A stretch of DNA of 64,000 nucleotides from Pseudomonadota bacterium (GTDB taxonomy: Bacteria > Pseudomonadota > Gammaproteobacteria > Steroidobacterales > JBCBZW01), in the NCBI GenBank assembly GCA_039193195.1, contig JBCCWS010000001.1:69338-133337 (forward strand), in the 5' to 3' direction. The notes beneath the pieces were generated by a model. It was not told the DNA's origin and ran no database searches. It saw nothing but the letters and a program-made list of their open reading frames with translations. Position 1 is the first letter of the stretch. Every line of letters starts with the position of its first letter. The translations under genes and the position numbers were made by a program. This document shows positions 7,292 through 29,217 of the stretch, in pieces.

Positions 7292-7322
7292 GACGTTGCT
7301 CGTTTCCGTAGGTAGTCGCGCG

Positions 7323-8291
<969 letters not shown>

Positions 8292-8633
8292 GTGCAAGTT
8301 AACTCCCTTGCGGTATTCAGTTGGCCACGCTAGCACACGGCTATCACGTGTTGCTCACGTCACCAAACGTTACGCCTCCAGAGAATTCGTCGCTGCCCAC
8401 GGGAGCGATTCTGAGATCTGGTCGTCCCCTCTAACTGACTGATGCTCTTGGCTTATGTGATCTTCCGGGGAGAAGTTCGCGGCTTGTGCCATGGCTCGGT
8501 TCTCGACCTTCAGGACCGAGGGCTAGGTCGCAGTGCCGCGCCCGGGTGCCGCCCTAGGATCGAAGGATCTGCGTGGTGCCCCGGTCCCTAGTGCCTGCCC
8601 CGCGTGCGATGACCATCTGCCGCGGGCCAACCC

Positions 8634-13122: not shown

Positions 13123-13216
13123 GGCGGCGAAGCGAAGCAGCGTCACCTGGTTGCGCAGTAGCCGACCGACTTGGCATGCTGACAGACTGTCGTCTCCTGG
13201 GGTCACCTTCTCGCGC

Positions 13217-16200
13217 ATGTCGATTCGCCGAATCGCTCGCTGGCGTAGCGGCTGTGCTGCCACGCTCTCCTTCATCGCCCTGGTCTCGGTCGGCGCGGCA
13301 AACGGGCAGGAGGGACAACGACGAGAGGGTGCCGCCCTTAGCGTTGGCGTGCCCGTGCTCGGTGCCCCACTCTCCTACCGCGCTGAAGACGGAGAACCGG
13401 TCGGCGTGCTAGTCGACTACTGGCGCATGGCCCAGCGCGAGCTCGGCGCCCTGCGCGTGTCCCTATGTGCAGCGCCCGCCGATTGCTTGGCCGATCTGGA
13501 AGCCGGCATTCTCGACCTCGCCGGTCCGATGGCGGTCGTCGATGAGTCGCCAGCGGTGGCGTTTTCTTCCCCGATCCTAAGCCTGCCCATCGCGGCGGCC
13601 GTCCGCACCGCTCGCGAACGCGACGCGCGGTTGCTGAAGGGCGCACGCGTAGGCCTGCTGAAGGCGCAGGAAGACGCTGTGGCAGAGAGGTTTGGTGGCG
13701 GGCCCGAGGGGTGCCTCAGACACGGGGGCTGCGCGCCGATCGCCCGCTGGTCACCGGCGTCTGTGGTCACCGTCAGCGCAGACCGCGGTGCGGCCTCCCT
13801 GGGGACGATTTTGGGGACGGATGTCGATGTGTTGGTTGGCGCTCGAGCTAACCTTTCCTCAAGCCTAGGTGAGTCCTCTCGTGCGCAGCTAATCGACCTT
13901 TGGCGCCGCTGGCTGTACGTGGCGGCGCGGTCTGGTGATCGCGAGCGCTTGCAGGCGGTGCAGGGCGCGCTACTTGGGATATCGCCGACAGACCTTAGTG
14001 CGAACGCCGCGCTAGCGGAGGCCTTCGGTGGTGTCGAGGGCTTGGCCTTGCCGCTCGATGTGCCGCAGTTGAGCGATCGCGAGAAGCTGTTCATAGACCG
14101 CCATCCGGCGCTGCATCTCGCCGCGGCGGTATGGGAGCCGCTAACGGTGCTGGAGGGCCAACGTGCCACCGGCCTTGCGATCGATAGCGTGCGCTACCAC
14201 CTCGCCCGCCTTGGCGTCACCGCGGTGTTCGAGTTTGGCGATTGGTCGGCGGTTCGTGCCATGTCGGATGCGCGCCAGCTGGACGGCTTAGGGTACGTGG
14301 TCTCTAACCGACACCTGGAAGATGGGCAATACGTCCTGACCAACTCGGTGGTGGAGGCGCCGTTCGTCGTTGCCCTAGGGCCCGCGGCACCGTTCGTCGG
14401 CTCCGTGGATGAGATCGCCTCGCTGCCGGCAGTCATGGAACGCCGCTATCAGGGCTTTTTGCCGACGATCGAGGCAGCCTACCCAGGCCTAGATCCGAGA
14501 CTCGTGGCGAGCCCGCGGGAGGCAGTGGAGGCGCTGGCTCAAGGGCGCGCCCAGGTGTGGCTCGAGTTTCTGCCGATCGTGCGCTACACGATCGCTCAGT
14601 TCGGTGAGGATCGCGTGGGCGAGATTCGCACGATCGGCACACCGTTGTTCGAGCGTATGTCGACCGCCTTGGATCCTGAGCTGGCCCCCATGGTGACGCT
14701 GATTAATCGCTCGATCGACGCGGCGCCGGTGGGCCTGGCGGCGGTGCAGAGTCGTTGGCTTGAGTTGACTGTGGAACCGGAGCCCGGCGGGCGCAATCGC
14801 GGGGCCGGTCTCGGCCTCGGCGTATTGAGTCTGCTGCTAGCCGCCGGGTGCGCGCACTTGCTCCGCCAGCGGATGCTGCAGCGCGCGCGACTGCGTGCTA
14901 GTGAGGCAGCCCTGCGTCGCGCCCAGTTGCTGTCTGGCGTCGGTAGCTTGGAGGTGCCCCCACCCTACAACCGCGTGCTGCTGACCGGCGATACGGGCCA
15001 TTTACTCGGCCTGCCCCGGGGCACTGCCGAGCAGTCCTTGAGCGAGCACTTGGCGCTCTTTGGTAGGGAGGACGCCGCGCGTCTGGACCAGGCCTTAGAG
15101 TCGGCGTGGCGCGCCGGTTATGGCAACACGGTAGCGCTGTCGGCATCGGATCAGCGCCGCTTCTTGTATGAGTTCTCACCGCCTGAATCGACCGAACAGC
15201 AGACGGCTTCCGTGCTGGTCACCCTGCGCGACGTCACCGAGCAGACCCAGCGCGAAGAGCGAGAGCGCGCTCTGGAGCACGAAGTGATGGAGCGGCAGAA
15301 GCTCGATGCGGTCGGGCGCCTAGCCGCCAGTATTGCGCACGACTTCAACAACGTGCTGAGCGTGGTGTTGGGCAGCGCAGAGCTCGCCCTGCGCGATGTG
15401 CCTGAAGGACATCCTGCGCATAAACCGATCCAGCAGGTGCTGACCGCGGGCCTGCGCTCACGTGAGCTGATCGGTCAGATGCTCAACTCCGTGCGCCCTC
15501 CCGCGCGCGAGCGCCAGCGTTTCTCACTGCGGGCGGTGGTCTCCGACACCTTAGGACTGCTTAGCCACGGCATTCCCGCCACCGTTTCCCCTGCCATTGC
15601 CCTCGGACAGGATCCGCTCTACGTGGATGGCAACGACGTGCAGCTGCGACAGGTGGTGGGCAATCTGATCCGCAACGCCGTCGATGCCATGCCGCAGGGC
15701 GGTGAGCTCACAGTGGAGCTGAATAGTGAACAGACCTCGCTCGGTCCTCGGGCGCGCCTGCGCGTTGCCGACACCGGCGTGGGCATGAGCGAGGAGACCC
15801 TCGCCAACTGCTTCGAGTTCTTCTTCACCACTCGCGCGGAGGGAACCGGTCTGGGCTTGGCCATCGTGCGCAGCCTAGTCACCGCGCACCGTGGACGCGT
15901 GGAGGTGCGCTCGACGGTGGGCGAGGGCACTCAGTTCGACGTGTGGTTGCCCCTGGCGGAGGACCAACTAGATCCCCCGAGCCGCGATCGAGATGAGACC
16001 GCCTTGCAGCTCGTGTCCGACAACCCCGCGCAGAGGCCCGAGGAAGATCCTCCCACAGCATCTGCGGCGAGCGCTCTCGCCAGTAATCCACCGCACCTCC
16101 TGCTCGTAGATGACGAGCGCGAGATGCTAAGCGCCGTCTCCAGCGGCCTGCGGGCCCGTGGCTTTCGCGTGACGCCGGTGGTCGGCGCGGACGCTGCCCT

Positions 16201-16462
16201 GGCTGCCGTGGATCACCATCGCGCACTGTACGACATCGTGCTGACGGATCTGGCCATGCCGGGAATGTCCGGCCTCGATCTGGCCCGGGAGTTGAAGCGC
16301 CGCGAGCCGCGCCTGCCGGTCGTGCTGCTCGCCGCCGGCTCGGAAGATCCGAACGGCTTGGCGAGTTCGCGCCACATCGATCGGGTGCTCGACAAGCGAA
16401 TCAGTAATGACGATCTGTCCGGCGTCCTCGGTGAACTCGTCTACGGTTACGCGGCCTCCTGA
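13217..16462 (+). CDS. Hybrid sensor histidine kinase: two periplasmic solute-binding-like domains, TM, PAS, HisKA, HATPase, receiver
   Basis: H-box SIAHDFNNVLS, N-box LIRNAVDAM, G-boxes DTGVGM / GTGLGLAIV. C-terminal receiver LLLVDDERE ... DLAMPGMSG. Start moved to MSIRRIARW (ATG 13217) to remove the overlap with the upstream kinase. Confidence 0.85.
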   Translation: MSIRRIARWRSGCAATLSFIALVSVGAANGQEGQRREGAALSVGVPVLGAPLSYRAEDGEPVGVLVDYWRMAQRELGALRVSLCAAPADCLADLEAGILDLAGPMAVVDESPAVAFSSPILSLPIAAAVRTARERDARLLKGARVGLLKAQEDAVAERFGGGPEGCLRHGGCAPIARWSPASVVTVSADRGAASLGTILGTDVDVLVGARANLSSSLGESSRAQLIDLWRRWLYVAARSGDRERLQAVQGALLGISPTDLSANAALAEAFGGVEGLALPLDVPQLSDREKLFIDRHPALHLAAAVWEPLTVLEGQRATGLAIDSVRYHLARLGVTAVFEFGDWSAVRAMSDARQLDGLGYVVSNRHLEDGQYVLTNSVVEAPFVVALGPAAPFVGSVDEIASLPAVMERRYQGFLPTIEAAYPGLDPRLVASPREAVEALAQGRAQVWLEFLPIVRYTIAQFGEDRVGEIRTIGTPLFERMSTALDPELAPMVTLINRSIDAAPVGLAAVQSRWLELTVEPEPGGRNRGAGLGLGVLSLLLAAGCAHLLRQRMLQRARLRASEAALRRAQLLSGVGSLEVPPPYNRVLLTGDTGHLLGLPRGTAEQSLSEHLALFGREDAARLDQALESAWRAGYGNTVALSASDQRRFLYEFSPPESTEQQTASVLVTLRDVTEQTQREERERALEHEVMERQKLDAVGRLAASIAHDFNNVLSVVLGSAELALRDVPEGHPAHKPIQQVLTAGLRSRELIGQMLNSVRPPARERQRFSLRAVVSDTLGLLSHGIPATVSPAIALGQDPLYVDGNDVQLRQVVGNLIRNAVDAMPQGGELTVELNSEQTSLGPRARLRVADTGVGMSEETLANCFEFFFTTRAEGTGLGLAIVRSLVTAHRGRVEVRSTVGEGTQFDVWLPLAEDQLDPPSRDRDETALQLVSDNPAQRPEEDPPTASAASALASNPPHLLLVDDEREMLSAVSSGLRARGFRVTPVVGADAALAAVDHHRALYDIVLTDLAMPGMSGLDLARELKRREPRLPVVLLAAGSEDPNGLASSRHIDRVLDKRISNDDLSGVLGELVYGYAAS

Positions 16463-16542
16463 GGCGCCCTACGCGACGAGCAATGCGCAAAACCGCGCTC
16501 GGCGGTGGGCGCACGGCGGGGACTGCGGCACAATCCTGCGCC

Positions 16543-17553
16543 ATGTACTATGCAGCCGCCTGCCAGACCGATTTCCCCAGCCCAACCCACCGCCGGGAGA
16601 TCGCCGAGCGAACGAACCGTCAGTGCGAGATCATCACCCAGACCTTGAGCGGGTACGGGCCGTTCTTCGACGTGCGTTTGTTCGCGTTTCCGGAGTTCTC
16701 CCACGCGGCACCGGCCTACGAGCGCGTCGAAGACCTCCACTGTCACCTGGCGCTGCCAATACCGAACGAGCACACTGATCGCTATCAACGCCTGTGCCGC
16801 GAGCACGGCTGCTACCTGCAGACGGGCACCTTCCTCGAGCGCGATGACGATTGGCCGGGGCTTGTCTTCAACACGACGGTGTTGATCGGCCCCCACGGCA
16901 TCCTCTCCCGCTACCGCAAGGTGAACCCATGGTTGCCGTGGGAGGTACACACGAGCCCGCACGACCTGTTGCCCGACTACCCCGCCGATCCCTTTCCCGT
17001 CGTGGAAACGGAGCTCGGGCGCCTGGGCGCTGCCATCTGCTACGACTGGCTGTTCCCCGAGACCATTCGTGAACTCGCCTTTCGCGGCGCCGAGGTGCTT
17101 ATCCGTGTGTCCGCTTACATGGACCCTTGGGGCACGGCGCAGCCGATGGACTGGTGGACCTTGATCAATCGGACCCGTGCCCTGGAGAACACGGCCTACG
17201 TCGTAGCTGCTAATCAGGGTGCTAGCCTGCGGCACTACCCACCCTTCTCCTGGCCGGGTGGCAGCATGGTGGTCGACTACGACGGGCGTATCTTGGCTCA
17301 GGCCGAGGCAGGCGGTGGCGAGCGCGTGGTGGTGGCGCCGATCAACATCGAGACCCTACGCGCCGAGCGTGCGCGCCGCGCCGGCCACGACATGCGAAGT
17401 CACCTGCGCAGCGAAGTGCACGGCTATCTGCAGACGCCACGCCTTGCGCCTGGCGGCCGCGCCGCGCCGCAGGCCGGCGACATCGAGGCGCGAATTCGCG
17501 CCGCCAAAGCCACCTTGGGGCCGACCCCACCGACGTCAGAGAAGCAGGCGTGA
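16543..17553 (+). CDS. Carbon-nitrogen hydrolase (nitrilase superfamily) protein
   Basis: Glu-Lys-Cys triad context: FPEF, RYRKVNPW, AAICYDWLFPE. Start set at MYYAAACQTDF. The stop overlaps the next gene's start (GTGATG). Confidence 0.8.
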   Translation: MYYAAACQTDFPSPTHRREIAERTNRQCEIITQTLSGYGPFFDVRLFAFPEFSHAAPAYERVEDLHCHLALPIPNEHTDRYQRLCREHGCYLQTGTFLERDDDWPGLVFNTTVLIGPHGILSRYRKVNPWLPWEVHTSPHDLLPDYPADPFPVVETELGRLGAAICYDWLFPETIRELAFRGAEVLIRVSAYMDPWGTAQPMDWWTLINRTRALENTAYVVAANQGASLRHYPPFSWPGGSMVVDYDGRILAQAEAGGGERVVVAPINIETLRAERARRAGHDMRSHLRSEVHGYLQTPRLAPGGRAAPQAGDIEARIRAAKATLGPTPPTSEKQA

Positions 17554-20500
17554 TGCGTTACCGCGTGACCATTGCGACGGCCCTGCTGATGAGCGCATTC
17601 GCAGTCCTCCTTAGCGCCTGCGCCGGAGACGAGGGCAGGCAGGATAGCGGCTTGCCGAGTGAAGTTGTGGCCCTCAACAACCGCGGCGTAGGCCTGATGG
17701 GCTACTTCGACTACCCCGGCGCTCGAGAGGTGTTCGAGCAAGTCGTCGCCTCGCAGCCCGAGTGGATCGATGCCCGCGTGAATCTGGCGATCGCCACCTT
17801 GAACCGCCAGCAAGAGGGCGATGAGGCACGGGCCGACGCGATCCTGCAGGAGGTCCTCGCGCAGGCGCCGCAGCATCAGCGCGCGCACTTCGTGGCGGGT
17901 CTACTGCGCCTCTACGAAGGTGCGCAGAGCGCGGCCCTGATCCACTTCCAAAAGGTAGCGCAGGCTGATCCTGGCGATGCCTACGCCGCGTACTACACGG
18001 GGCAGCTGCTGGCCGTGGACTATCCGGAGCAGGCCCTCGATTGGTTCGAGCGCGCCATCGAGACTGACCCCTACCTACGCAGTGCTTACTACGGCGCCAG
18101 CATCGCCCTCAGGCGCTTGCGCCGGCGTGATGAGGCGGTGCGCATGCAGGAGCAGTACCTGCGCCTGGAGTCCAATCCGCGCGCTCGCTTGGCGGAGTTC
18201 AAGTACACCCGCATGGGACCCAAAGCCAACGCGCTGGCGGTGCCCGTACGAGGTCTGTCGCCTGCAGAGTCGACCACGGCGATTCCCGAGGGGGCCGCGT
18301 TCGCTGCCGCCGTGCCGGTCGCGCCGCAGTGGCAGTTACCCGAGTCGTCCACGCTGACCACGGCAGATCTCAATGGGGACGGTGAGCAGGATCTGTTCCT
18401 CAGCCGAGCGCGGACTAACGCGGCCCAAGCGTCCGCCAGCCTGGTGCTGCTCGCCGATGGCGATGGCTGGGGCGCCCTAGCCGATCATTCCCTAAGCGGT
18501 ATCGACGGCGTCGTGGCAGCGGCGTGGGCGGACTTCGACAACGATGGGGATGTCGACGCCTACCTGTGCCGCGCTGGAGTCGATCAGCTCTGGTATCGAG
18601 AAGGGGATAGCGAATGGCGGCTTCAGCCTGAGCAGCTGCTGGGACTTCGGCTGCCGGGCGACGATTGCCGCGACGTGGCCGCCTTCGATGCGGATCACGA
18701 CGGTGACGTCGACATCTTCGTGGTCGGGGAGCAAGCTAACGAACTGATCAACAATGATGGCGACGGCAGTTTTCGCGCCCTGGGGCAGTCCCAGGGACTG
18801 GCGGGATCGGGGGGAGGGCGTCAGGTGTTGGCCCTCGATATCGATGCTGACCGCGATACGGATATTGCCGTCCTGAACGCACAACCGCCCCACGCGCTGT
18901 TTCTCAACGATCGCCTGTGGCAGTACCGCACCCTGCAAACGCCCGCCTTCGCTGAGATCGGCGCGCGAGCGATGAGCGCCGGGGATGCGGATGCCGACGG
19001 CCAGGCTGAGCTGTACCTGCTGCAATCCGCCTCGGACGCGGTGACCGTGCTGGAGTGGGAGGGCGAGACGTTCACCGTTCAAGGCACGGCCGCCGTTGCT
19101 CCCGGCATGACCCAGCTCAGCCTGGGCGACTACGACGGCGATGGCGCGATGGAGCTGCTCGCGGCTGGCGAGGAAGGGGCCGTACGAATGGACGCGTCTA
19201 GTCTGCTCACCGATCGCCCGAGTGCGGGGCTGGCCGTGACCTCCTCCGCAGCCAGCACCCTCGTCCCTGTGCTCCGCGATGTGGCGGCAGGCCCGGGCTT
19301 GATGACCGTGGTCGACGGCGCTCTTCAGTGGCTCGGCCCCGGTGACGGACGTCATCCCTTCGCGTCGTTCGCCCTGGTGGGACGCGCGTCCGAGGCGGAT
19401 GCGATGCGCTCGAACGCCGCGGGGATCGGCACTCGCCTGGCCCTGCGTCGCGGTGAGTACTGGAGTGTGACCAGTACCTTCGACGGTGACTCTTCGCCCG
19501 GACAGAGCCTGCAGCCGGTGAGCCTCGGGCTCGGCGCCAGTGCCCAGGCGGACTTCGTGGCCATCGACTGGTCCGACGGGGTGTTCCAAACCGAGCTCGA
19601 CCTGCCTGCTGGCGCGCTGCATCGGATCGCCGAGACCCAACGCCAGCTGGCGAGCTGTCCAGTGTTGTTCGCGTGGAACGGTGAGGAATACGCCTTCGTA
19701 ACCGACCTGCTCGGTGTTGGTGGGATCGGCTTCCTTCTGGCACCGGGCGAGTACAGCACGCCGCGACCGTGGGAACGCATGCTCCTCAGCGAAGCGCAGC
19801 TGTCGCCGCGGCGCGGACGCCTGGCGCTCAAGCTCACCGAGCCGATGGAAGAGGTCGCCTACGTGGACCAGTTAGCGCTGCACGAGGTGCTAGTGCCGCC
19901 GGGCTGGCAGGTGATGCTGGATGAACGCCACAGCACGGATCCGCGGCGCCCACCGAGCGGCGAGCTGCGCTGGTATCGGGAATCGTTGCGGCCCCTAGGC
20001 GCACGCGATGGGCGAGGCCATGAGGTGCTGGCAGCCGTGCTCGATCGCGACGGTGTAGCAGTGCCGGTCGGGGTGCGTGACACGCGTTTCCTCGGCCGCC
20101 TGCAAGCGTCTCAGGTACTGACGATGGAGTTTGCCGCGGCCCTCGGCGAGCAGGACGGTAGAGCGCGCTGGCTGTTGGCCGATGGCTGGGTGGAGTACCC
20201 CTACTCGCAGACGCTATTCGCTGCCTGGCAGGCCGGTGTCACCTACGAACCGCCTTCGCTCGAGGTGAGTACCGACGGTGAGCATTGGCAGCTTGTTGCG
20301 GCGCGCTTCGGCTATCCCGCTGGGATGCCCCGGCAGATGGCCCTGCCGCTGCACGATCTTCCGCGAGGGGCCCGCTACCTGCGCCTGACAGGTAACTTGG
20401 AGATCTACTGGGATCGCTTGCGCGTGGCCCTGGTGGAGCCGGCGCCGACGCCGGCGCGGGTCACACCCCTGCCCCTGCAACGAGCGGTCTTGTCGCAGGT

Positions 20501-20894
20501 GGGTTTCCCCGTGCGCACGACCCATGCCCAGCGCCGCCCCCACTTCGATTATGGGCAACGCCAGACCTTCTGGGATACGCGCTACACGCGTGGTGCCTAT
20601 ACGGCCTTCGGTGACGTGCGCGAGCTGGTGGGTGAGCAGGATGACGCCCTTGCTCTGGTGGGTGCAGGGGAGGAGTTGCACGCTGAGTTTGCCGCGAGCG
20701 CCAGCTTCCCTGGCGAGGGCTGGTCGCGTCGCTATCTGTTGACCACCGCCGGCTGGGCCAAGGACATGGACCTGTACACACGCGACGGCGACTCGGTGGA
20801 CCCTATGCCCCATCGCAGCGACGAGCCCGGTGTTCTCGCCAGGCGCGACGCGCTGCACGCGCGCTTTCACACCCGCCCGCTCTCCGGAAAGTGA
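17550..20894 (+). CDS. Lipoprotein with N-terminal TPR repeats, FG-GAP/VCBS repeats, an ASPIC/UnbV-like segment and a roughly 480-aa uncharacterised C-terminal region
   Basis: Lipobox LLSAC. Repeated DxDxDGDxD calcium-loop motifs (DLNGDGEQDLFL, DFDNDGDVDAYL, DADHDGDVDIFV, DYDGDGAMELLA). UnbV-like GIGTRLALRRGEYWSV. Confidence 0.75.
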   Translation: MMRYRVTIATALLMSAFAVLLSACAGDEGRQDSGLPSEVVALNNRGVGLMGYFDYPGAREVFEQVVASQPEWIDARVNLAIATLNRQQEGDEARADAILQEVLAQAPQHQRAHFVAGLLRLYEGAQSAALIHFQKVAQADPGDAYAAYYTGQLLAVDYPEQALDWFERAIETDPYLRSAYYGASIALRRLRRRDEAVRMQEQYLRLESNPRARLAEFKYTRMGPKANALAVPVRGLSPAESTTAIPEGAAFAAAVPVAPQWQLPESSTLTTADLNGDGEQDLFLSRARTNAAQASASLVLLADGDGWGALADHSLSGIDGVVAAAWADFDNDGDVDAYLCRAGVDQLWYREGDSEWRLQPEQLLGLRLPGDDCRDVAAFDADHDGDVDIFVVGEQANELINNDGDGSFRALGQSQGLAGSGGGRQVLALDIDADRDTDIAVLNAQPPHALFLNDRLWQYRTLQTPAFAEIGARAMSAGDADADGQAELYLLQSASDAVTVLEWEGETFTVQGTAAVAPGMTQLSLGDYDGDGAMELLAAGEEGAVRMDASSLLTDRPSAGLAVTSSAASTLVPVLRDVAAGPGLMTVVDGALQWLGPGDGRHPFASFALVGRASEADAMRSNAAGIGTRLALRRGEYWSVTSTFDGDSSPGQSLQPVSLGLGASAQADFVAIDWSDGVFQTELDLPAGALHRIAETQRQLASCPVLFAWNGEEYAFVTDLLGVGGIGFLLAPGEYSTPRPWERMLLSEAQLSPRRGRLALKLTEPMEEVAYVDQLALHEVLVPPGWQVMLDERHSTDPRRPPSGELRWYRESLRPLGARDGRGHEVLAAVLDRDGVAVPVGVRDTRFLGRLQASQVLTMEFAAALGEQDGRARWLLADGWVEYPYSQTLFAAWQAGVTYEPPSLEVSTDGEHWQLVAARFGYPAGMPRQMALPLHDLPRGARYLRLTGNLEIYWDRLRVALVEPAPTPARVTPLPLQRAVLSQVGFPVRTTHAQRRPHFDYGQRQTFWDTRYTRGAYTAFGDVRELVGEQDDALALVGAGEELHAEFAASASFPGEGWSRRYLLTTAGWAKDMDLYTRDGDSVDPMPHRSDEPGVLARRDALHARFHTRPLSGK

Positions 20895-23656
20895 TGGCGA
20901 GATCGACTAGCAGGGCGCGGCCGCGCCCAGTGATCGGACCGCGCCTTCGCGTACTGCTGCAGGGCGTGTTCGTTCTGTTCGCGCTGCTGGTGGTCAACTC
21001 CGTGTACCTCGCAGGGACCTCCTTGCTCGAGTGGTTGAGTGGGGCCTCGTGGCAGGGCGCCGTGTTCCAGGTGATGTTTCTCGCCCACCTGGTGCTGGGT
21101 GTCGTGCTAATCGCACCGTTTCTGATCTACGCTGTAGTCCACGCGCGCAACGCGTGGCATCGGCCGAATCGCCGCGCCGTAGCCATGGGCCTGGTCTTAA
21201 CCGTGGCCGGCGGCGTTCTCCTGATTACTGGCCTTGTGCTAACCCGCGCCATACCCGGTTTGCCGTTGACCTCACCGGCCCTGCGTCAACCGCTCTACTG
21301 GGTGCACGCCTTGGTGCCGCTACTGGTCGTATGGGCCTTCGTGCTCCACCGTTTGGCAGGGCCTGCGATCGCTTGGCGCCGAGGTGCGGGGGCGTTCGCT
21401 GCGGCGCTGGCTGTCACGCTGGCAGTCGGTACGTGGAACTGGTGGTCCGCGCCGAGCGTCGGGGTGGCGACGGCCGACGATACTGATCGATACCACCTGA
21501 TGCCATCGTTGGCGAAGACTGCCGACGGTCAGCCGATAGGCGTCGAAGCGCTGGTCAACGATCAATACTGCGTCGACTGCCACGCCGACACCCATGAGCG
21601 CTGGGCCGCGAGCGCTCACCGCTTCGCGTCCTTCAACAATCCCGCCTACCGCTTCTCCGTGGCGAATACGCGGGCGGAGATGCTGGCGCGCGACGGCAAC
21701 GTAGAGGGCACGCGCTTCTGCGCTGGCTGTCACGACCCCGCGCCCCTGTTTAGCGGTGCCTTGGAGCAAGCCGACTTCGACCCCGATTCGGTCGCCGGTC
21801 AGGCGGGGATTACGTGCACCGCCTGTCACGCCATTACGAGCATCGACTCCCCGCGCGGCAACGCCGACTACACGATCGGCGCGCCAAGGCACTACCCGTT
21901 CGCGCGCAGCGAGGGTGGGCTCGGCAAGTGGGTCAATCACCTGCTCGTGCGTGCGAACCCGGAGTTTCACCGCCGCACGTTTCTGAAGCCTCTGCACAAG
22001 ACGCCGGAGTTTTGTGGTACCTGCCACAAGGTGCACCTACCCGAAGCGGTGAACGACTACAAGTGGCTGCGCGGGCAGAATCACTACGACACCTGGCTGC
22101 TGAGCGGCGTGTCGGGTCACGGTGTGTCGAGCTTCTACTACCCGCCCGCGGCCAAGCAGTGCAACGACTGCCACCTGGCCCCACTCCCCTCCGATGATTT
22201 CGGTGCGGTGGTGCGGGCCCCGGGCGAGCCGCCCACGGTGCACGATCACCTCATGGCGGCCGCTAACACGGCCTTAGGGCACTGGCTCGACTTCCCAGCG
22301 TGGAGTGAGCAAGCGACGAAAGACATGCTGGTGGGGTCCTTGCGTGCGGATATCTTTGCCGTGCGTGAGGGTGGTGATTTGACGGGCGCGCTGGTGGCGC
22401 CCCTGCGCCCCCAGGTGCCAACCCTGAAGGGCGGTGAGCGCTACCTCTTCGACGTTGTGTTGCGAACGCTAACGCTCGGCCATCCCTTCACCCAAGGCAC
22501 GGCCGACTCGAACCAGGTGTGGGTGGAGGTGCGGGCGAGCCTCGACGGCGTGCCGCTCGCCCACAGTGGCGCACGGGACCCGGGAAGCGGCGAGGTGGAT
22601 CCGGCCGCGCACTTCGTCAACGCCTTCGTCTTGGACCGCCAGGGCCAACGGATCGACGCACGCAACGCGGAAGACATCTTCACGGTGCTATACAACCACC
22701 AGATCCCGCCCGGTGCGGCCGATGTGGTGCACTATGCCCTCGCCCTACCCGAAGGCGCACACGGCACCTTGACCCTCGAGGTAGCGCTCAACTACCGCAA
22801 GTTCGACACTCGTTTCCTGGCCCTCATGAGGGACGACCCCGAGGTAGTGAACGCGCTCCCGATCACCGTCATCGCGCGAGATCAGTTGAGTTTCCCTGTC
22901 TCGGTTGAGGCCGGCGCTGCGCAGGCCCTTTCCGCGCCGGACATCCCGACCTGGCAACGGTGGAACGACTACGGCATCGGCCTGCTGCGCAAGCCCGGAG
23001 TTGGCGAGCTGCGTCAGGCGGAGCAGGCCTTCACTATGGTGGAGCGCCAGGGGCGGGGCGATGGCAGCCTCAACTTGGCACGGGTCTACTTGCGTGAAGG
23101 GCGCGTGGACGCCGCGGCGGACGCCCTGGTGCGCGCCGGGGGCAGCGCCGACGTGATGCCCTGGGTGGTGGCGTGGTTCAACGCGCAGGTCGATCGCCAG
23201 AACGGCTACCTCGATGAGGCGATCACTCAGCTCGAGGCCATCGTCGACACGCGCTTCACGCAGGCGCGTGAGCGCGGCTTCGACTTCGCCTCGGACTATC
23301 GCGTACTCAACGAACTTGCCCTCACCCACTACGAGCGCGCCCGATCACTGCGCGGCGAACGCCAACGGGATCGTCGCGGGGCGGATTTGGAGGCGGCTCG
23401 TCGTTGGTACACGGCCACGCTAGAGTTGGATCCGGAGAATCTAAGTGCGCACTACGGCCTAGCTCAGGTGTTCGCCGCCTTGGGCAAGATGTCTGAAGCC
23501 GACTATCATCGGGCGCAGCATGCGCGGTACAAACCCGACGACAACGCAGCGGACGTGGCCATCGCCGCCGCTCGCCGCGCCTACCCGCAAGCGGCGCGCG
23601 CCGCGGACGACACGGTGATCTACCCGCTGGTAGCGCCACGACAGTCGCGCCGATGA
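20891..23656 (+). CDS. Membrane-anchored multiheme c-type cytochrome (5 CXXCH) fused to C-terminal TPR repeats
   Basis: About 5 N-terminal TM helices carrying conserved His. CVDCH, CAGCH, CTACH, CGTCH and CNDCH lie between 21569 and 22174. TPR-like C-terminal third. Confidence 0.75.
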   Translation: MMARSTSRARPRPVIGPRLRVLLQGVFVLFALLVVNSVYLAGTSLLEWLSGASWQGAVFQVMFLAHLVLGVVLIAPFLIYAVVHARNAWHRPNRRAVAMGLVLTVAGGVLLITGLVLTRAIPGLPLTSPALRQPLYWVHALVPLLVVWAFVLHRLAGPAIAWRRGAGAFAAALAVTLAVGTWNWWSAPSVGVATADDTDRYHLMPSLAKTADGQPIGVEALVNDQYCVDCHADTHERWAASAHRFASFNNPAYRFSVANTRAEMLARDGNVEGTRFCAGCHDPAPLFSGALEQADFDPDSVAGQAGITCTACHAITSIDSPRGNADYTIGAPRHYPFARSEGGLGKWVNHLLVRANPEFHRRTFLKPLHKTPEFCGTCHKVHLPEAVNDYKWLRGQNHYDTWLLSGVSGHGVSSFYYPPAAKQCNDCHLAPLPSDDFGAVVRAPGEPPTVHDHLMAAANTALGHWLDFPAWSEQATKDMLVGSLRADIFAVREGGDLTGALVAPLRPQVPTLKGGERYLFDVVLRTLTLGHPFTQGTADSNQVWVEVRASLDGVPLAHSGARDPGSGEVDPAAHFVNAFVLDRQGQRIDARNAEDIFTVLYNHQIPPGAADVVHYALALPEGAHGTLTLEVALNYRKFDTRFLALMRDDPEVVNALPITVIARDQLSFPVSVEAGAAQALSAPDIPTWQRWNDYGIGLLRKPGVGELRQAEQAFTMVERQGRGDGSLNLARVYLREGRVDAAADALVRAGGSADVMPWVVAWFNAQVDRQNGYLDEAITQLEAIVDTRFTQARERGFDFASDYRVLNELALTHYERARSLRGERQRDRRGADLEAARRWYTATLELDPENLSAHYGLAQVFAALGKMSEADYHRAQHARYKPDDNAADVAIAAARRAYPQAARAADDTVIYPLVAPRQSRR

Positions 23657-25596
23657 GTGACCGACCCCGCCGGCCGAGCCCTAGCGAGGGCGATCGAGTC
23701 ATCGGTCGCGCCCTCAAGATCTCCCTGTTCTTCGCGATGGCCGGAGTTGTGCTTGTGGCGGCGGCTCTGTGGGTGCTGCGAACGCAGACGGGCGGCGACG
23801 TCCTGGTTGGTGATTCGAGTCCAACGCCCGCCCAGCCCGCGGTCGAGGAAACCCGCGCCTCCCGTCCTCGCTTCGTCGATGTCACTGAGGCTGCCGGCAT
23901 CGATGCCCCGCACGCGAGCGGCGCCGCCGGCGAGAGCCTGCTGCCCGAGACCATGGGCGGCGGCGTGGCTTTCTTTGATGCCGACAGCGACGGCGATCCA
24001 GACCTGCTGCTGGTCAACGGGGGCACGCTGCCCGGGGTGGCGCCGGCGTCAACTGCACCGGCACTCACCCTCTACCTAAACGACGGCACTGGGGCCTTCG
24101 CGGCCATGGCGCCTGAGGCGAGCGGACTGATCGGCAGCTTTTACGGCATGGGCGTGGCGACCGGCGACTACGATGGCGATGGACGCATCGACGTCTACGT
24201 GACCGCCGTAGGCCCGAATCGCCTCTACCGCAGTCTCGGCGAGGGGCGCTTCGAGGAAGTCACGGCCACCGCGCAGGTGACCGGCGCCGAAGATGCGTGG
24301 AGCAGCAGCGCGGTCTTCGTGGATATTGATCGTGACAACGACCTGGATTTGTTTGTCGTCAACTACGTGGCTTGGTCTCGGGAGATCGACTTCGAGGTGG
24401 ACTACCGCCTGGCAGGTATCGGCCGCGCCTACGGCCCGCCGACCAACTACCCCGGCAGCGCCAGCTATCTGTTCCGCAACGAAGGTGACGGCAGCTTTAC
24501 CGACGTCTCCGAGGAGGCCGGAGTGGTGGTGCGCAATCCGGCCACCGATGCGCCCAGTGGTAAGGGCCTCGCCGTGCTCGCCATGGACGTCAACGAGGAC
24601 GGCTGGGTCGATCTGCTCGTGGCCAACGACACAGTGGGCAACTACCTGCTCCTCGGCGATGGCGATGGCACCTTTACTGAAGTCGGCACCACGGCAGGGT
24701 TGGCCTTCGACAACACGGGCACGGCAACGGGCGCTATGGGCATGGACGTGGCCTGGTACGACGATGGCCAGACCCTTGGTGTGGCAGTGGGCAATTTCGC
24801 CAACGAGATGTCCTCCTACTATGTGACGGAACTTGCCGCAGCGGCGGCCGGTTCCGCCGAGGTGCACCCAGTGCCCGTGTTCACTGACGAGGCGGCGATC
24901 AGCGGGATCGGCGCGCCGAGTCGGCGTGCCCTCACTTTTGGCCTGCTGTTCTTCGACTATGACCTCGATGGTCACCAGGACCTGCTCCAAGTGAACGGCC
25001 ATGTGGAGGATGAGATCAATGTGGTTCAGCCCAGTCAGCAGTACGCCCAGGCCGCCCAGCTCTTCTGGCGCTGCGCGGCCAGCGACTGCGCGCGGCCTTT
25101 CGTCGCCTTGGAGACGGCGGACCTCGGCGCCCTCGCCCAACCGCGGGTGGGGCGAGGCGCCGCTCATGCCGACATTGACGGGGACGGCGATCTCGACCTT
25201 CTGCTGACGGCGATCGACGATCGCCCACTGCTTCTGCGCAATGACACACCGGGGCCCGATGAGCATTGGCTGCGTGTGCGCCTGCGCGATGAACGCGAGG
25301 GGAGCCAGAATCGCTTCGGCCTAGGAGCCACGGTCACGGTGGTGCTCGAAGACGGCAGTCTGCGTAGGCGCTTGTTGAGTCCCGCGAGATCCTACCTCTC
25401 GCAGGTGGAGACGGTGGCGAGCTTCGGCCTTGGGACAGCCGCGATCGTCAAGTCCGTACAGGTGCGCTGGCCCGATGGTAAAGAGCAGCGTATCGGGCCC
25501 CTAGCGGTGGATGGCGTCTGGGAGATTCGTCGTGGGGACAGCGCCCCTACACGCTACCCAAGCACGGCGGCGGAGGCAGAGTCCGCCACGCCCTAG
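23653..25596 (+). CDS. CRTAC1-family protein (FG-GAP/VCBS repeats plus ASPIC/UnbV domain), N-terminal membrane anchor
   Basis: FDADSDGDPDLLLV, DYDGDGRIDVYV, DIDRDNDLDLFV, DVNEDGWVDLLV, DIDGDGDLDLLL. UnbV-like GLGATVTVVLEDGSLRRRLL...VQVRWPDG. ATGA overlap with the upstream gene. Confidence 0.8.
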   Translation: MSDRPRRPSPSEGDRVIGRALKISLFFAMAGVVLVAAALWVLRTQTGGDVLVGDSSPTPAQPAVEETRASRPRFVDVTEAAGIDAPHASGAAGESLLPETMGGGVAFFDADSDGDPDLLLVNGGTLPGVAPASTAPALTLYLNDGTGAFAAMAPEASGLIGSFYGMGVATGDYDGDGRIDVYVTAVGPNRLYRSLGEGRFEEVTATAQVTGAEDAWSSSAVFVDIDRDNDLDLFVVNYVAWSREIDFEVDYRLAGIGRAYGPPTNYPGSASYLFRNEGDGSFTDVSEEAGVVVRNPATDAPSGKGLAVLAMDVNEDGWVDLLVANDTVGNYLLLGDGDGTFTEVGTTAGLAFDNTGTATGAMGMDVAWYDDGQTLGVAVGNFANEMSSYYVTELAAAAAGSAEVHPVPVFTDEAAISGIGAPSRRALTFGLLFFDYDLDGHQDLLQVNGHVEDEINVVQPSQQYAQAAQLFWRCAASDCARPFVALETADLGALAQPRVGRGAAHADIDGDGDLDLLLTAIDDRPLLLRNDTPGPDEHWLRVRLRDEREGSQNRFGLGATVTVVLEDGSLRRRLLSPARSYLSQVETVASFGLGTAAIVKSVQVRWPDGKEQRIGPLAVDGVWEIRRGDSAPTRYPSTAAEAESATP

Positions 25597-25604
25597 CCCA
25601 AGGC

Positions 25605-27044
25605 TCAGCCGGTAACTGCCTTGAGTGCCGATAGCGCTCGCTCGCGCGCCACTTTGTGCGCCACTACCGGCGCCGGGTAATCCCGCCCCAGCTTCACGCC
25701 TACGCTCTCCAGCACCGTTGTGGGTGCGGCGGCGGGCTCGTGGATGTACTTGTCGGGCACCGCCGCGATCTCAGGTACCCAACGGCGCACATAGGTTCCC
25801 TTAGCATCGAACTTCTTGCCCTGAAGCGTAGGGTTGAAGATCCGGAAGTAGGGCGCCGCGTCCGCTCCGGACCCTGCGGCCCACTGCCAACCGCCCGCGT
25901 TGTTCGCGAGATCCGCATCCACCAGCGTGTCCCAGAACCAATCCTCGCCGAGACGCCAGGGCAGCAAGAGATGTTTGACCAGGAATGAGCCGACGATCAT
26001 GCGCACGCGGTTGTGCATCCAGCCCGTGGTCCAGAGTTCGCGCATACCCGCGTCGACGATGGGGTAGCCGGTCTGGCCCTGCTGCCAGGCGCGCAGGCCC
26101 GGCAGGTCCTCGCGCCAGGGGAAGGCGTCGTAGGCGGGCTTGAAGGCCTGCTCGCCGATCGTCGGATAGGCGAGCAGGAGGTGACTGTTGAAGTCGCGCC
26201 AGCCAAGTTCGCGCAGATACGCTTCGGCGCGCGGGTCGGCGAGATTGCCGCCCACCTCGTTGGCCACCAGGTGCCAGATTTGACGCGGGCTGATTTCGCC
26301 GAAGCGAAGGTGGGCGGAGAGGCGCGACGTACCGCGCTCACCGGGGATGTCCCGCGCCTCGTGGTAGTCCGCCAGGCTGGTCTCCAGGAACCGCTCCAGG
26401 GCGGCTATGGCGCCACCTTCGCCCGGGCTCCACTGATCGGCAAAGCCTCCGGACCAGTCTGGCTTGGTGGGCAGTAGTCGCCAGTCGCTCAGCGAGTCGC
26501 TCGCCGGGGAGGATGCACAGGGCGTGAGCCTGCCTGGCGCGGGTACCGGCGCCTTCGGTGGATCGGCGCGCAGGCAAGCGCGCCAGAAGGGCGTAAAGAC
26601 CTTGTAGGTGTCGCCGCCGCCGGTGAGGATCCGTCCCGGTTCGAACAAAAGGCGCCCCGCGAAGCGCTTGACTGAGGCGCCCTGCGCGCTTAGCGCGTCG
26701 TTCAGCCGCTGTTCGGTCTCCACCACCCAGGGTTCGTAGCCGCGGCAGCAGTACAGCGCGTCGGCGCCGGTCTCCTCGACCAGGCGCGTGAGCACATCCT
26801 CGAAGCCACCGCGACGTAGCGTGAGGGGGATGGCGAGTTGCGCCAGTGATTGCTCGAGGCAGGTAAGGCTGTGATGCAACCACCAACGGCTAGCGCCGCC
26901 GAGTGTCCAGGCGCCTGGCGAGTGATCGTCTAGCACGTAGACCGCGATTACCGGTTGCCCGCTCTGGGCGGCGGCGTGCAGGGCTGGTTGGTCGGTGACG
27001 CGCAGATCGTCGCGGAACCAGACGACGATGGGTGAGGCACTCAT
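25605..27044 (-). CDS. phrB: Deoxyribodipyrimidine (CPD) photolyase, class I
   Basis: IVVWFRDDLRVTDQPAL N-terminus. FAD-binding region TGYPIVDAGMRELWTTGWMHNRVRMIVGSFLVKHL. Confidence 0.9.
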   Translation of the reverse strand: MSASPIVVWFRDDLRVTDQPALHAAAQSGQPVIAVYVLDDHSPGAWTLGGASRWWLHHSLTCLEQSLAQLAIPLTLRRGGFEDVLTRLVEETGADALYCCRGYEPWVVETEQRLNDALSAQGASVKRFAGRLLFEPGRILTGGGDTYKVFTPFWRACLRADPPKAPVPAPGRLTPCASSPASDSLSDWRLLPTKPDWSGGFADQWSPGEGGAIAALERFLETSLADYHEARDIPGERGTSRLSAHLRFGEISPRQIWHLVANEVGGNLADPRAEAYLRELGWRDFNSHLLLAYPTIGEQAFKPAYDAFPWREDLPGLRAWQQGQTGYPIVDAGMRELWTTGWMHNRVRMIVGSFLVKHLLLPWRLGEDWFWDTLVDADLANNAGGWQWAAGSGADAAPYFRIFNPTLQGKKFDAKGTYVRRWVPEIAAVPDKYIHEPAAAPTTVLESVGVKLGRDYPAPVVAHKVARERALSALKAVTG

Positions 27045-27694
27045 GGCTTCTCCGGTGGTAAGTCAGCGGCGGCGCTATCGAGGATGCGCGTGCGTACATC
27101 GCGATGCAGCTGGGGATGGTTGAGGATGCACTGATGGCACATCGAGTCGATACGTACGTTCGTGCCGATGGGTAAGGTGGAGCTTATCGCCGGCACGATG
27201 ACGAGATCGAAAGGCGTCCAGTAGCACGTAAGAGGGCGTTGGGTCAGGGTGTCTAGATCGTCGTTCAGGCGGGTCAGGAAGGCGCTGCCAGGGCGCATTT
27301 GCCGCATGGCGGGCAACGGGCCGAGCCAGGACCAGTGGGTGCCGCGGTGAGGGGCGCAAACGGAGATGAACTGGGCCGTACGCGCGATACCGCCGAGGGT
27401 TTGCAGGTAGTAGCGAGCGACGATGGCGCCCATGCTGAAGCCGAGCAGATGCACGGAGCGATGCGCAGGAACATGCTCCTCGACGTGCTCGGCGAGCTGT
27501 GCTGCCAGCACTTCCAGGGGTGCTGCTCCATGGTTAGGGACCAGGTTTGGTGCACTGCTGGCGATCCCAGCGTCAGCGAGCACACTCTGCAAAGGGCGGA
27601 AGATGCGCCCGCGATCCATGATGCCGTGGACGAGCACTGCAAGGGGGCCTTCTCCCGATGCTGGCGCCGCGTGCCTGCCGCTCAGCTCGCTCAC
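27041..27694 (-). CDS. Alpha/beta hydrolase (lipase/esterase-like), about 217 aa
   Basis: VLVHGIMD oxyanion region and GFSMGA (GxSxG) nucleophile elbow. GTG start at 27694-27692 overlaps the upstream stop (GTGA), and the stop overlaps the phrB ATG (ATGA). The track ORF to 28057 is an out-of-frame extension into the upstream gene. Confidence 0.7.
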   Translation of the reverse strand: MSELSGRHAAPASGEGPLAVLVHGIMDRGRIFRPLQSVLADAGIASSAPNLVPNHGAAPLEVLAAQLAEHVEEHVPAHRSVHLLGFSMGAIVARYYLQTLGGIARTAQFISVCAPHRGTHWSWLGPLPAMRQMRPGSAFLTRLNDDLDTLTQRPLTCYWTPFDLVIVPAISSTLPIGTNVRIDSMCHQCILNHPQLHRDVRTRILDSAAADLPPEKP

Positions 27695-29217
27695 GCCGCT
27701 TGCGTCTTCGCCTCGAGGAAGGCCTCGGCGGCGGCGAAGATCATCTCGCGTCGAGTGTCCTTCATTTTGTCCAGGGTGCGCGTCATCATCGATAGGCGGG
27801 GATTGCTCGCAAATTGCTTGCGGTGGCGCGCGATGAATCGCCAGTACAGGCCGTCCACTACATCGCACCACTCGCCCTTGCGATAGTCGCTCATCTTCAG
27901 CAGGTAATTCGAGCCGCAGATGTAGGGTTTGGTGGCAAATATGCCGCCGTCGCTGAAGATGCCCATGCCGTAGACGTTGGGGCCCATCACCCACTCGGAC
28001 GAGTCGACAAACATCTCCATGAACCAATCGTGCACGCGATGGGGATGGATCTCGCACAAGGTCATCAGATTGCCGAAGACCATCAGGCGCGGAATGTGGT
28101 GCACCCAGCCGAGCCGCTGCAGGTCGCGGATCGAGTCGTCCAGGGGCGGGATTCCGGTGGTGCCCTCGTACCAGTCAGCAGTAAAGGTGCGCGTGTGATT
28201 CCAGTGGTTGCGCTCTGCTTGGGTCTCACCGTGATAGCGGTAGATGCCGCGGATGAACTCGCGCCAGCCGATGAGTTGGCGAATGAACCCCTCGATGCTC
28301 TGCAATGGTAGCTGGGGATCGTCTCGGTAGGCTTGCTGCACCCGTTCGAGCGCGTCGCGCGGGGTGATCAAGCCGAGGTTCAGCATGGGCGTCAGCACGC
28401 TGTGGAACACGGTGGGCGAGCGGGTGGTAAGAGCGTCCTGATAGGGGCCGAACAGGGCCAGGCGCTCATCGATGAAGCGCTTGAGCCAGCTGAGGGCTTG
28501 GCGGCGGGTCACGGGGAACCAGAACCGGTGGGCATCTCCTGGGTGATCGGCGAACTCCTTGGCCACCAGTTCGATCACCGCCTGGGTGATCTCATCGAGG
28601 CGCCGTCCGGGCACCTCGGGAATGCTCTGGGCTGCCGGCAGCTTGCGCCGGTTGTCCGCATCGAAGCTCCACTGGCCGCCGACGGGACTCTCGCCATCGT
28701 CCTCCATGAGCACGCCAAGTCGCTTGCGTTCCTGTTTGTAGAACTCGGCCATGAAGGGGCGGCGGGCACCCTCGAGGTAGTCGGCGAAGCGCGCACGTGG
28801 GCATAGGAACATGGGGTTCTCCAGCACCTCGACGGCGAGATTTTGGTCCTCGGCGAAGCGTTGCAGCCGCTGCTCGAAGGGCTTGTCCTCCACCTCGAAG
28901 TGGACGAGGGCGGTCGCCTTCGCCCGCTGCAAGCAGGCGGCGAGCTTATCCTCGTAGGGGGTATCGCCATCCACTTCCAGGGTGTGGTACTCCACGGCGT
29001 AGCCCGCTTCGCGCAGCGCTTGCGCGTGGTGACGCATGGCGGCGAGGAAGAGCACAATCTTCTGCTGGTGATGGCGAACGTAGGTGCACAGGTGACGGTC
29101 CTCGGCCATGAAGATCAGCACCGAATCGACCGCGGGCAGCGCACTGGGTGCGAACAGGTGGTTGCCGAGCAGCGGCATCACGCGGCGAGCGGACGTTGAG
29201 GCGTTGCGCTTGGTCAC
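27691..29217 (-). CDS. Cryptochrome/photolyase-family protein of the COG3046 type (related to prokaryotic (6-4) photolyase / FeS-BCP)
   Basis: About 500 aa. Motifs WREFIRGIY, HIPRLMVFGN and KPYICGSNYLLKMSDY are typical of the photolyase-related family. The start could be M1 (29217) or M14 (29178). Confidence 0.75.
   Translation of the reverse strand: MTKRNASTSARRVMPLLGNHLFAPSALPAVDSVLIFMAEDRHLCTYVRHHQQKIVLFLAAMRHHAQALREAGYAVEYHTLEVDGDTPYEDKLAACLQRAKATALVHFEVEDKPFEQRLQRFAEDQNLAVEVLENPMFLCPRARFADYLEGARRPFMAEFYKQERKRLGVLMEDDGESPVGGQWSFDADNRRKLPAAQSIPEVPGRRLDEITQAVIELVAKEFADHPGDAHRFWFPVTRRQALSWLKRFIDERLALFGPYQDALTTRSPTVFHSVLTPMLNLGLITPRDALERVQQAYRDDPQLPLQSIEGFIRQLIGWREFIRGIYRYHGETQAERNHWNHTRTFTADWYEGTTGIPPLDDSIRDLQRLGWVHHIPRLMVFGNLMTLCEIHPHRVHDWFMEMFVDSSEWVMGPNVYGMGIFSDGGIFATKPYICGSNYLLKMSDYRKGEWCDVVDGLYWRFIARHRKQFASNPRLSMMTRTLDKMKDTRREMIFAAAEAFLEAKTQAA

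Follow-up and report, generated by a model that had tools for sequence, protein, structure and literature searches.

A widespread bacterial gene pair encoding a putative b/c fusion cytochrome and a CRTAC1-family propeller protein

Here we describe a four-gene operon, g1 to g4, in a 64,000-nucleotide stretch of gammaproteobacterial DNA (the window; positions 69,338 to 133,337 of contig JBCCWS010000001.1, assembly GCA_039193195.1, order Steroidobacterales), and in particular the gene pair at its core, g3 and g4, which is an undescribed pair found in hundreds of bacterial species. Judging from its sequence and structural model, the g3 product is probably a b/c fusion cytochrome tied to the quinone pool, a property that the initial annotation of this DNA had missed, and g4 encodes an FG-GAP propeller protein of the CRTAC1/ASPIC-UnbV family. 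As that annotation had stated, the bacterial CRTAC1 family has no described function in the searchable literature, and literature on UnbV, ASPIC, CRTAC1, FG-GAP, multihaem and Wenzhouxiangella contained no description of the g3-g4 pair or of the larger cluster. The genes and their junctions are as follows:

16543-17553, plus strand: g1, a 336-residue nitrilase-superfamily amidase, predicted to be cytoplasmic
17550/17553-20894 (GTG/ATG start), plus strand: g2, a 1113-residue predicted lipoprotein with tetratricopeptide repeats (TPR) and a propeller
20891/20894-23656 (GTG/ATG start), plus strand: g3, a 920-residue membrane cytochrome
23653-25596, plus strand: g4, a 647-residue CRTAC1-family protein
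17550-17555, plus strand: g1/g2 junction GTGATG, the stop codon TGA overlapping the start
20891-20896, plus strand: g2/g3 junction GTGATG, a stop/start overlap
23653-23656, plus strand: g3/g4 junction ATGA, a 4-nucleotide stop/start overlap

The four plus-strand open reading frames (ORFs) are chained at these junctions just as first annotated, and the domain calls made at that time (CN-hydrolase, TPR/FG-GAP lipoprotein, five-haem cytochrome with TPR, and CRTAC1/ASPIC-UnbV protein) were borne out by a Pfam scan. Each stop codon of g1, g2 and g3 overlaps the start of the next gene, by 1 nucleotide (ATG) or 4 nucleotides (GTG) at the two GTGATG junctions. GC-rich operons (65-67% GC here) often have four-base overlaps of this kind, which are unremarkable alone; across g1 to g4 they support co-transcription. 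No excess of promoter-like or terminator-like sequence was found inside the cluster.

More than 6900 relatives of the g3 family are present in a metagenomic protein collection, and species-representative genomes contain at least 597 loci, the best 80 of which were used for our g3-centred analysis. Among the 72 loci informative on this point, 66 have an ortholog of g4 as the next gene after g3, in the same orientation, and 69 have one somewhere in the locus. These pairs span at least five phyla (Planctomycetota, Verrucomicrobiota, Gammaproteobacteria, Acidobacteriota, Latescibacterota and Methylomirabilota), and cultured carriers among the loci listed include Rhodopirellula, Stieleria, Wenzhouxiangella, Thioalkalivibrio sp. 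XN8 and Pseudoalteromonas sp. SSM20. The initial annotation had made its proposal depend on a conserved neighbourhood, and for g3 and g4 the neighbourhood is indeed kept. With start codons called from the longest ORF, the gap between the two genes matches the 4-nucleotide ATGA overlap in 10 of 56 loci, the window's own included. All-against-all clustering of the ORFs from the 80 loci identified CRTAC1 paralogues, TPR proteins and g1 as the only conserved neighbours; no conserved porin, second cytochrome, cytochrome-maturation, transporter, cofactor or kinase genes were found near g3.

The remaining two genes are less constant companions. In 16 of 57 informative loci the gene directly before g3 is of the g2 type, and g1 is present in 13 of 50; among the 15 informative loci with g2 in that position, 10 have g1. 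Centring the analysis on g1 instead (80 metagenome loci, 64 of them informative for g2) placed g2 directly downstream of g1 in 29 of the 64 and adjoining it in another orientation in approximately 11 more. Because g3-g4 is near-constant while g1-g2 joins it in about a quarter of loci and also occurs without g3, the operon is best seen as a near-universal g3-g4 core joined to a g1-g2 module, a union that recurs in several phyla. The four-gene unit first proposed thus stands for its g3-g4 core but not for g1-g2, which form a separate module. We consider it improbable that the two modules are functionally unrelated and were brought into one operon by chance in this lineage. Such an account would fit the occurrence of g3-g4 alone in most Planctomycetota and Verrucomicrobiota loci, of g1-g2 with no g3 in the following 6 kb at two loci (L159 and L160), and of g1 alone in three loci with 10 kb flanks (L134, L145 and L149). 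However, Gammaproteobacteria, Isosphaeraceae (L010), other Planctomycetota (L019) and Phycisphaerae (L071) again have all four genes in the order g1-g2-g3-g4, g1 lies directly beside g3 in Pseudoalteromonas (L045), and g2 and g4 share the CRTAC1 architecture.

The g3 product combines four regions, the first and third of which were delimited on an AlphaFold2 (AF2) model of residues 1-700 (predicted local distance difference test score, pLDDT, 79.6; predicted template modelling score, pTM, 0.75):

20939-21448, plus strand: residues 16-185, transmembrane domain of five helices (AF2)
21491-22303, plus strand: residues ~200-470, penta-haem c domain (CXXCH motifs and match to 5ZE8)
22340-22903, plus strand: residues 483-670, immunoglobulin (Ig)-like beta-sandwich (AF2 strands)
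22949-23653, plus strand: residues ~686-920 (~230 residues), C-terminal TPR domain (Pfam TPR and Protein Data Bank (PDB) profile matches to TPR proteins)

The model runs from five transmembrane helices (residues 16-49, 56-87, 93-116, 128-153 and 161-185) through a helical haem domain and a beta-sandwich to the start of a TPR solenoid. Basic residues, as read from the sequence, are found at the N-terminus and in the loops that follow helices 2 and 4, so the N-terminus is predicted to be cytoplasmic and everything after helix 5 periplasmic. Helix 2 carries His65 and His83 and helix 4 carries His138 and His152, spaced 18 and 14 residues apart, with His65 and His138 toward the periplasmic side and His83 and His152 toward the cytoplasmic side. 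All four are invariant in an alignment of 25 sequences from several phyla (Gammaproteobacteria, Planctomycetota, Verrucomicrobiota, Acidobacteriota, Latescibacterota and Methylomirabilota) and also in 56 proteins, and they are flanked by conserved Arg, Tyr and Trp residues. In FdnI, NarI and cytochromes b and b561, such an arrangement of histidines ligates two stacked b haems. Because four invariant histidines sit on two helices at two membrane depths, the domain is probably a di-haem b site, one that would connect the periplasmic haems with the quinone pool or with the cytoplasmic side of the membrane. When 1.84 billion cluster representatives were searched exhaustively with phmmer, this domain turned up in 483, all of which fit the g3 family or fragments of it, and in no other architecture, which makes it a family-specific membrane module.

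The periplasmic part of g3 contains exactly five CXXCH motifs (residues 226, 276, 308, 374 and 423), whose fifteen Cys and His residues are all invariant among 56 homologues. At least five further histidines of the domain are conserved (H242, H359, H368 and H452) or near-invariant (H397, H234, H409 and H450), so that each of the five haems could have bis-His ligation, which would fit an electron wire better than a catalytic haem. Comparison with the penta-haem cytochrome c552 of Thermochromatium tepidum (5ZE8) gave phmmer and profile E-values of 2.9e-5 and 1.3e-6, in alignments that bring haem motifs 1-3 and the first distal His into register, and the same protein was the top Foldseek match (E 3.7e-10, probability 1.00, 503 aligned columns, TM-score 0.56 on the target). 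By sequence and model alike, the region reads as a member of the c552/ExtKL penta-haem cytochrome (PHC) family. The beta-sandwich that follows has weak Ig-like Foldseek matches to CARDB and transglutaminase domains and bears the invariant motif G529-H530-x-F-T-x-G-T-x-D-S-N540. Within the haem domain, a loop at residues 387-417 (22052-22144; WLRGQNHYD...SGVSGHG...SFYYP) is invariant but modelled with a pLDDT below 50; this strong conservation without confident structure suggests that the loop contacts a cofactor or a partner.

The g4 product begins with a hydrophobic membrane anchor (residues 16-45), followed by a propeller of FG-GAP calcium-loop repeats (FG-GAP_3, E 1.2e-33, 115.9 bits) and a UnbV_ASPIC domain at residues 556-621 (62.5 bits against a cut-off of 23.4). 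Human CRTAC1 is a homologue (9etn_A, E 3.8e-20). Scored against the window's g4, the cytochrome-linked orthologs reach a median of 501 bits and the remaining CRTAC1 paralogues of these loci 217 bits; on these sequence scores the orthologs form a distinct, dedicated orthogroup. The products of g2, g3 and g4 are all predicted to face the periplasm, in keeping with the extracytoplasmic location first ascribed to them.

The partnership of TPR and CRTAC1-type propeller appears in three genetic formats: fused in g2, encoded by separate adjoining genes, and as the TPR of g3 followed by g4. For the second of these, a TPR protein of ~520 residues has a CRTAC1 paralogue as its same-strand neighbour in 10 of 14 cases; nine of these paralogues measure ~545-620 residues and the tenth ~1085 residues. 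Because this pairing recurs, the TPR may be a docking module for the propeller protein, and synteny leads us to infer that the g3 TPR docks g4. The adjoining TPR and CRTAC1 genes make up a second, cytochrome-free module near many of the clusters (L002, L006, L018, L020, L022, L024, L038, L045 and L063).

Starting from the established gene order, domain content, conservation, haem-domain fold homology and predicted topology, we infer a mechanism that covers haem b binding, quinone coupling, the docking of g4 on the TPR and the role of g4. Our best reading, held tentatively and with slightly less than even confidence, is that g3 uses two b and five c haems to carry electrons between quinones and the periplasm, with its TPR holding g4 as the addressed end, g2 as an accessory and g1 as a linked amidase. 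The g3 protein would sit in the cytoplasmic membrane by its five helices, N-terminus inside and C-terminus outside, where the paired histidines of helices 2 and 4 would hold two b haems stacked across the membrane. These haems would join a quinone/quinol site to the periplasmic chain of five c haems, housed in the c552/ExtKL-type PHC domain with its Ig-like domain. The TPR solenoid would then dock the membrane-anchored calcium propeller of g4, and this propeller may form the end of the chain that binds the substrate or is otherwise redox-addressed. In this scheme g2 would serve as an accessory capture or scaffold lipoprotein and g1 as a cytoplasmic amidase of the short-amide type that is genetically tied to g2. 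We have a weak preference for electron flow from quinol to the periplasm. A stronger version, in which g3 and g4 form an unrecognised, widespread periplasmic oxidoreductase whose cytochrome of two b and five c haems feeds the CRTAC1 propeller as substrate-binding or catalytic subunit, seems to us unlikely.

Several results weigh against the electron-transfer reading. Among the 25 members scanned, the transmembrane domain of g3 has no significant match in Pfam (PF01292 in one of the 25, at E 0.013; DUF2231 in six, best E 0.0055) or NCBIfam, a PDB profile search gave no significant match, and Foldseek gave no transmembrane match in the PDB; the case for haem b is therefore that of the histidine pattern and the topology, with no similarity to a known cytochrome b beside it. 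The invariant residues of g4 fall mostly in FG-GAP repeat and calcium-loop motifs, with no recognisable redox cofactor, metal or catalytic signature. No g3-g4 fusion was identified: two apparent ones, ORFs of ~1525 residues at L042:10048-14637 and L065:10123-14697, are out-of-frame, Arg-rich artefacts of GC-rich DNA without CXXCH motifs. The cluster is absent from approximately 20 of the 64 g1 loci, and g1 may therefore have a role apart from it. Finally, T. tepidum c552, the closest solved relative of g3, has no assigned function (PMC11976967; bioRxiv 10.1101/2023.11.21.568154).

We regard as rather unlikely the alternative that the membrane histidines of g3 carry no haem, leaving either a tethered penta-haem cytochrome that serves soluble carriers or redox sensing, or a membrane domain that is a metal site or a mere anchor. 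The domain's lack of detectable similarity to any cytochrome b family and its restriction to the g3 family are what such an alternative would lead one to expect. Yet the four histidines are invariant across phyla, lie at matched depths on two helices and have conserved Arg, Tyr and Trp flanks, a classical di-haem pattern that a plain anchor would not keep, and five helices exceed what anchoring needs.

We likewise think it doubtful that the cluster is a module for envelope maintenance or oxidative stress, following the logic of MsrPQ or of superoxide- or peroxide-handling b cytochromes, in which g3 would supply electrons from quinol for the repair or detoxification of a periplasmic target, with g4 as adaptor or client-binding subunit. 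The g3-g4 pair is widespread in aerobic heterotrophs such as Rhodopirellula, Stieleria, Wenzhouxiangella and Pseudoalteromonas, and its design of a membrane haem protein with a periplasmic partner resembles MsrQ/MsrP. A vanadium-haloperoxidase-like gene also lies directly upstream of the cytochrome in three verrucomicrobial loci, but these are only three of 80, and neither a molybdoenzyme nor a peroxidase is a conserved partner, with no Oxidored_molyb gene in the cluster. A kinship between the g3 transmembrane domain and MsrQ was rejected when hhalign against the MsrQ-like protein of the window returned a probability of 0.3%. The window also already holds a separate MsrPQ-like pair on the minus strand (6584-8336), consisting of a Ferric_reduct membrane protein at 6584-7378 and an Oxidored_molyb protein at 7323-8336.

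Least probable of all, and in our view very unlikely, is a conduit for extracellular electron transfer or Fe/Mn redox chemistry, the latter suggested in the initial annotation, in which g3 would draw on quinol while the propellers offer a mineral or metal substrate at the cell surface: only five c haems would be available to span the periplasm, the cultured carriers Rhodopirellula, Stieleria, Wenzhouxiangella and Pseudoalteromonas are aerobic heterotrophs, and in the 80 loci g3 has no conserved neighbour that encodes a porin, an outer-membrane cytochrome or another multihaem protein. In favour of the conduit are the probable outer-membrane location of the g2 lipoprotein and the company of the g3 haem domain, whose fold family includes Geobacter ExtKL, encoded in a porin-cytochrome cluster (PMC11976967), and PtdA, from a putative porin-cytochrome operon (bioRxiv 10.1101/2023.11.21.568154).

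The g2 product, deposited as MEM9383484.1, is built from the following regions, all on the plus strand:

residues ~36-216: TPR (Pfam)
residues ~260-620: FG-GAP propeller with four FG-GAP_3 stretches (Pfam)
residues 624-688: ASPIC-like domain (Pfam, borderline)
residues 681-1113 (19593-20891): C-terminal all-beta region (AF2; no Pfam family)

Its lipobox reads LSAC, with a cysteine at position 23 that is conserved in at least 90% of homologues. Because Ala occupies position +2, the lipoprotein is probably sent to the outer membrane, going by its sequence. The UnbV_ASPIC match scores 21.3 bits, beneath the cut-off of 23.4, and the precomputed Pfam list of an identical protein (P0121) includes PF07593; the match to human CRTAC1 (9etn) is weak (E 1.6e-4). 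The full-length architecture is kept in more than 1600 homologues. Its C-terminal region was modelled as all-beta (pLDDT 87, pTM 0.87), and Foldseek comparison with the PDB gave only weak local matches to CBM32/discoidin domains (E ~3e-3, TM-score ~0.5 on the target), so that the model bears a weak resemblance to lectin/CBM32-like jelly rolls.

The g1 product matches CN_hydrolase with E 3.5e-36 (125.3 bits against a gathering cut-off of 23.2) and has the triad Glu51-Lys126-Cys166, at least 97% conserved among 121 homologues. It shows neither a signal peptide nor a hydrophobic N-terminal segment. Its closest solved relatives are the formamidases 5g3o and 2dyu (E 1e-25 to 1e-23), with the aliphatic amidase 2uxy also among them, and it appears to be a cytoplasmic amidase nearest the formamidase/aliphatic-amidase branch. 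It scores under the NCBIfam equivalog cut-offs for both formamidase (NF009803, 110 against 406 bits) and aliphatic amidase (NF009802, 84.6 against 427 bits). With 65-74% identity across phyla, g1 is unusually conserved and belongs to a subfamily of its own.

Two start codons in the operon have plausible alternatives. For g1, an ATG is also available at 16483, but homologues from the 160 loci all align from the MYYAA start at 16543, which is hence the most likely one. For g3, the NCBI entry (MEM9383485.1, 908 residues) begins 12 codons after the ATG at 20894; the region trimmed (20894-20929) encodes a basic N-terminus that is kept in homologues, and with the later start the stop/start overlap with g2 would be lost.

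Upstream of the operon, a hybrid histidine kinase (12980-16462) ends exactly 80 nucleotides before g1, and downstream of g4 lies a photolyase gene (25605-27044) on the opposite strand; this gap and this change of strand mark g1 to g4 as a discrete unit. The kinase had been credited at first with two solute-binding domains and with possible control of the operon. Its position is as annotated, and its domains comprise HisKA, HATPase_c, Response_reg and only one clearly detected SBP_bac_3. As for control, the kinase is not conserved beside the cluster in any other locus: a tblastn search of the 160 loci returned generic kinase-core matches elsewhere in the loci only, and we rejected it as a conserved regulator. 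The photolyase gene is the first of a minus-strand group convergent with the operon (25605-29217), which continues with an alpha/beta hydrolase (27041-28057) and a DPRP photolyase-related protein (27691-29217). The longest ORFs of these last two overlap at 27691-28057, so one of the starts is probably shorter than listed. Elsewhere, the window encodes a reprolysin-like M12B metallopeptidase with a DUF11 domain (8634-11099, plus strand) and an OmpA-family protein with thrombospondin type 3 repeats (30395-31690, minus strand).

Some of the other loci exhibit accessory genes next to the cytochrome. The vanadium-haloperoxidase-like gene of the three verrucomicrobial loci (L013:6990-9847, L025 and L032) encodes a protein of ~700 residues with DUF6851, VCPO_2nd and PAP2 domains, and a DUF1559/N-methyl pseudopilin-like gene is also found directly upstream of the cytochrome in these three. 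Four loci (L013, L034, L052 and L057) contain a LytS-type kinase along with a family whose representative (L013:6069-6842) reads as LytTR-regulator-like from its translation alone. In Pirellulales (L029:599-1015, L051, L055, L056 and L067), the gene directly upstream of the cytochrome is a small Cys-containing ORF of ~140 residues, whose N-terminus is hydrophobic and which matches no Pfam family.

Planctomycetota, Verrucomicrobiota, Gammaproteobacteria and other groups are rich in proteins of the CRTAC1/ASPIC-UnbV family, which animals also possess, and the g3-g4 pairing offers the first testable functional context for the family, with the propeller as the putative partner of a quinone-linked electron wire. 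It also brings to light a new membrane domain, a candidate for haem b binding, and gives a functional context to the uncharacterised penta-haem c552/ExtKL fold. Were electron transfer through g3 to g4 borne out, common aerobic heterotrophs would possess an extra branch of electron transfer; should the pair act as an oxidoreductase, it would provide the first biochemical role for CRTAC1/ASPIC-UnbV and a TPR-to-propeller docking rule for many paralogues. Cultured carriers in the genera Pseudoalteromonas, Wenzhouxiangella, Rhodopirellula and Stieleria make the hypothesis genetically tractable.

Each domain described here comes from a known superfamily, and it is the combination of domains in g3 and the partnership with CRTAC1 that are unmatched in the searchable literature. 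In logic, g3 is like Geobacter CbcL, in which a di-haem b domain of the HydC/FdnI type is fused to a multihaem c domain, and like the quinol dehydrogenases NapC, NrfH and CymA, in that a quinone-contacting membrane domain would be fused to a periplasmic multihaem wire; it differs from them in sequence, domain order, haem number, TPR and propeller partner. The NapC/NirT/NrfH type has four haems and a single N-terminal helix, whereas g3 has five of each, and against the NrfH-type model TIGR03153 it scores 19 bits for a cut-off of 134.2. With the di-haem cytochromes b (PF01292 FdnI/HydC, NarI and b561), g3 shares the pattern of four histidines on two helices at two depths, without sequence or profile similarity. 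MsrPQ pairs a Ferric-reductase-type subunit with a molybdopterin partner, neither of which is matched in the g3-g4 cluster, and, unlike the porin-cytochrome conduits MtrCAB and ExtHIJKL, the 80 g3 loci have no conserved neighbouring porin or multihaem cytochromes.

Formamidase AmiF and aliphatic amidase AmiE (nitrilase branch 2) have the same CN_hydrolase fold and Glu-Lys-Cys triad as g1, which lies far beneath their equivalog cut-offs in a separate, highly conserved subfamily. Human CRTAC1 (9etn) and the bacterial ASPIC-UnbV proteins share FG-GAP calcium-loop repeats and UnbV_ASPIC with g4 and, more distantly and with a borderline UnbV_ASPIC match, with g2; g4 differs from the human protein in its N-terminal membrane anchor, in having no EGF domain by Pfam, and in belonging to a cytochrome-tied orthogroup.

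The nearest relatives of the g3 periplasmic part are T. tepidum c552 (5ZE8) and the proteins grouped with it, namely Geobacter ExtKL, the penta-haem cytochromes of cable bacteria (sPHC and lPHC) and PtdA (PMC11976967; bioRxiv 10.1101/2023.11.21.568154), with which g3 shares five CXXCH haems followed by an Ig-like beta-sandwich. Whereas those proteins are described as soluble or as lipoproteins, g3 adds an N-terminal domain of five helices and four histidines, a C-terminal TPR and a near-constant CRTAC1 neighbour. For that last feature a parallel comes from non-anammox bacteria, where a CRTAC1-family gene lies between hydrazine-synthase-like subunit genes in a haem-protein cluster (PMC12758564). 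The haem proteins there are different ones, homologues of hydrazine synthase (HZS) alpha and beta-gamma, with no membrane b/c cytochrome and no TPR fusion, but a CRTAC1-type FG-GAP protein is likewise encoded amid periplasmic haem proteins, and these clusters are an independent precedent for the CRTAC1 family in such company.

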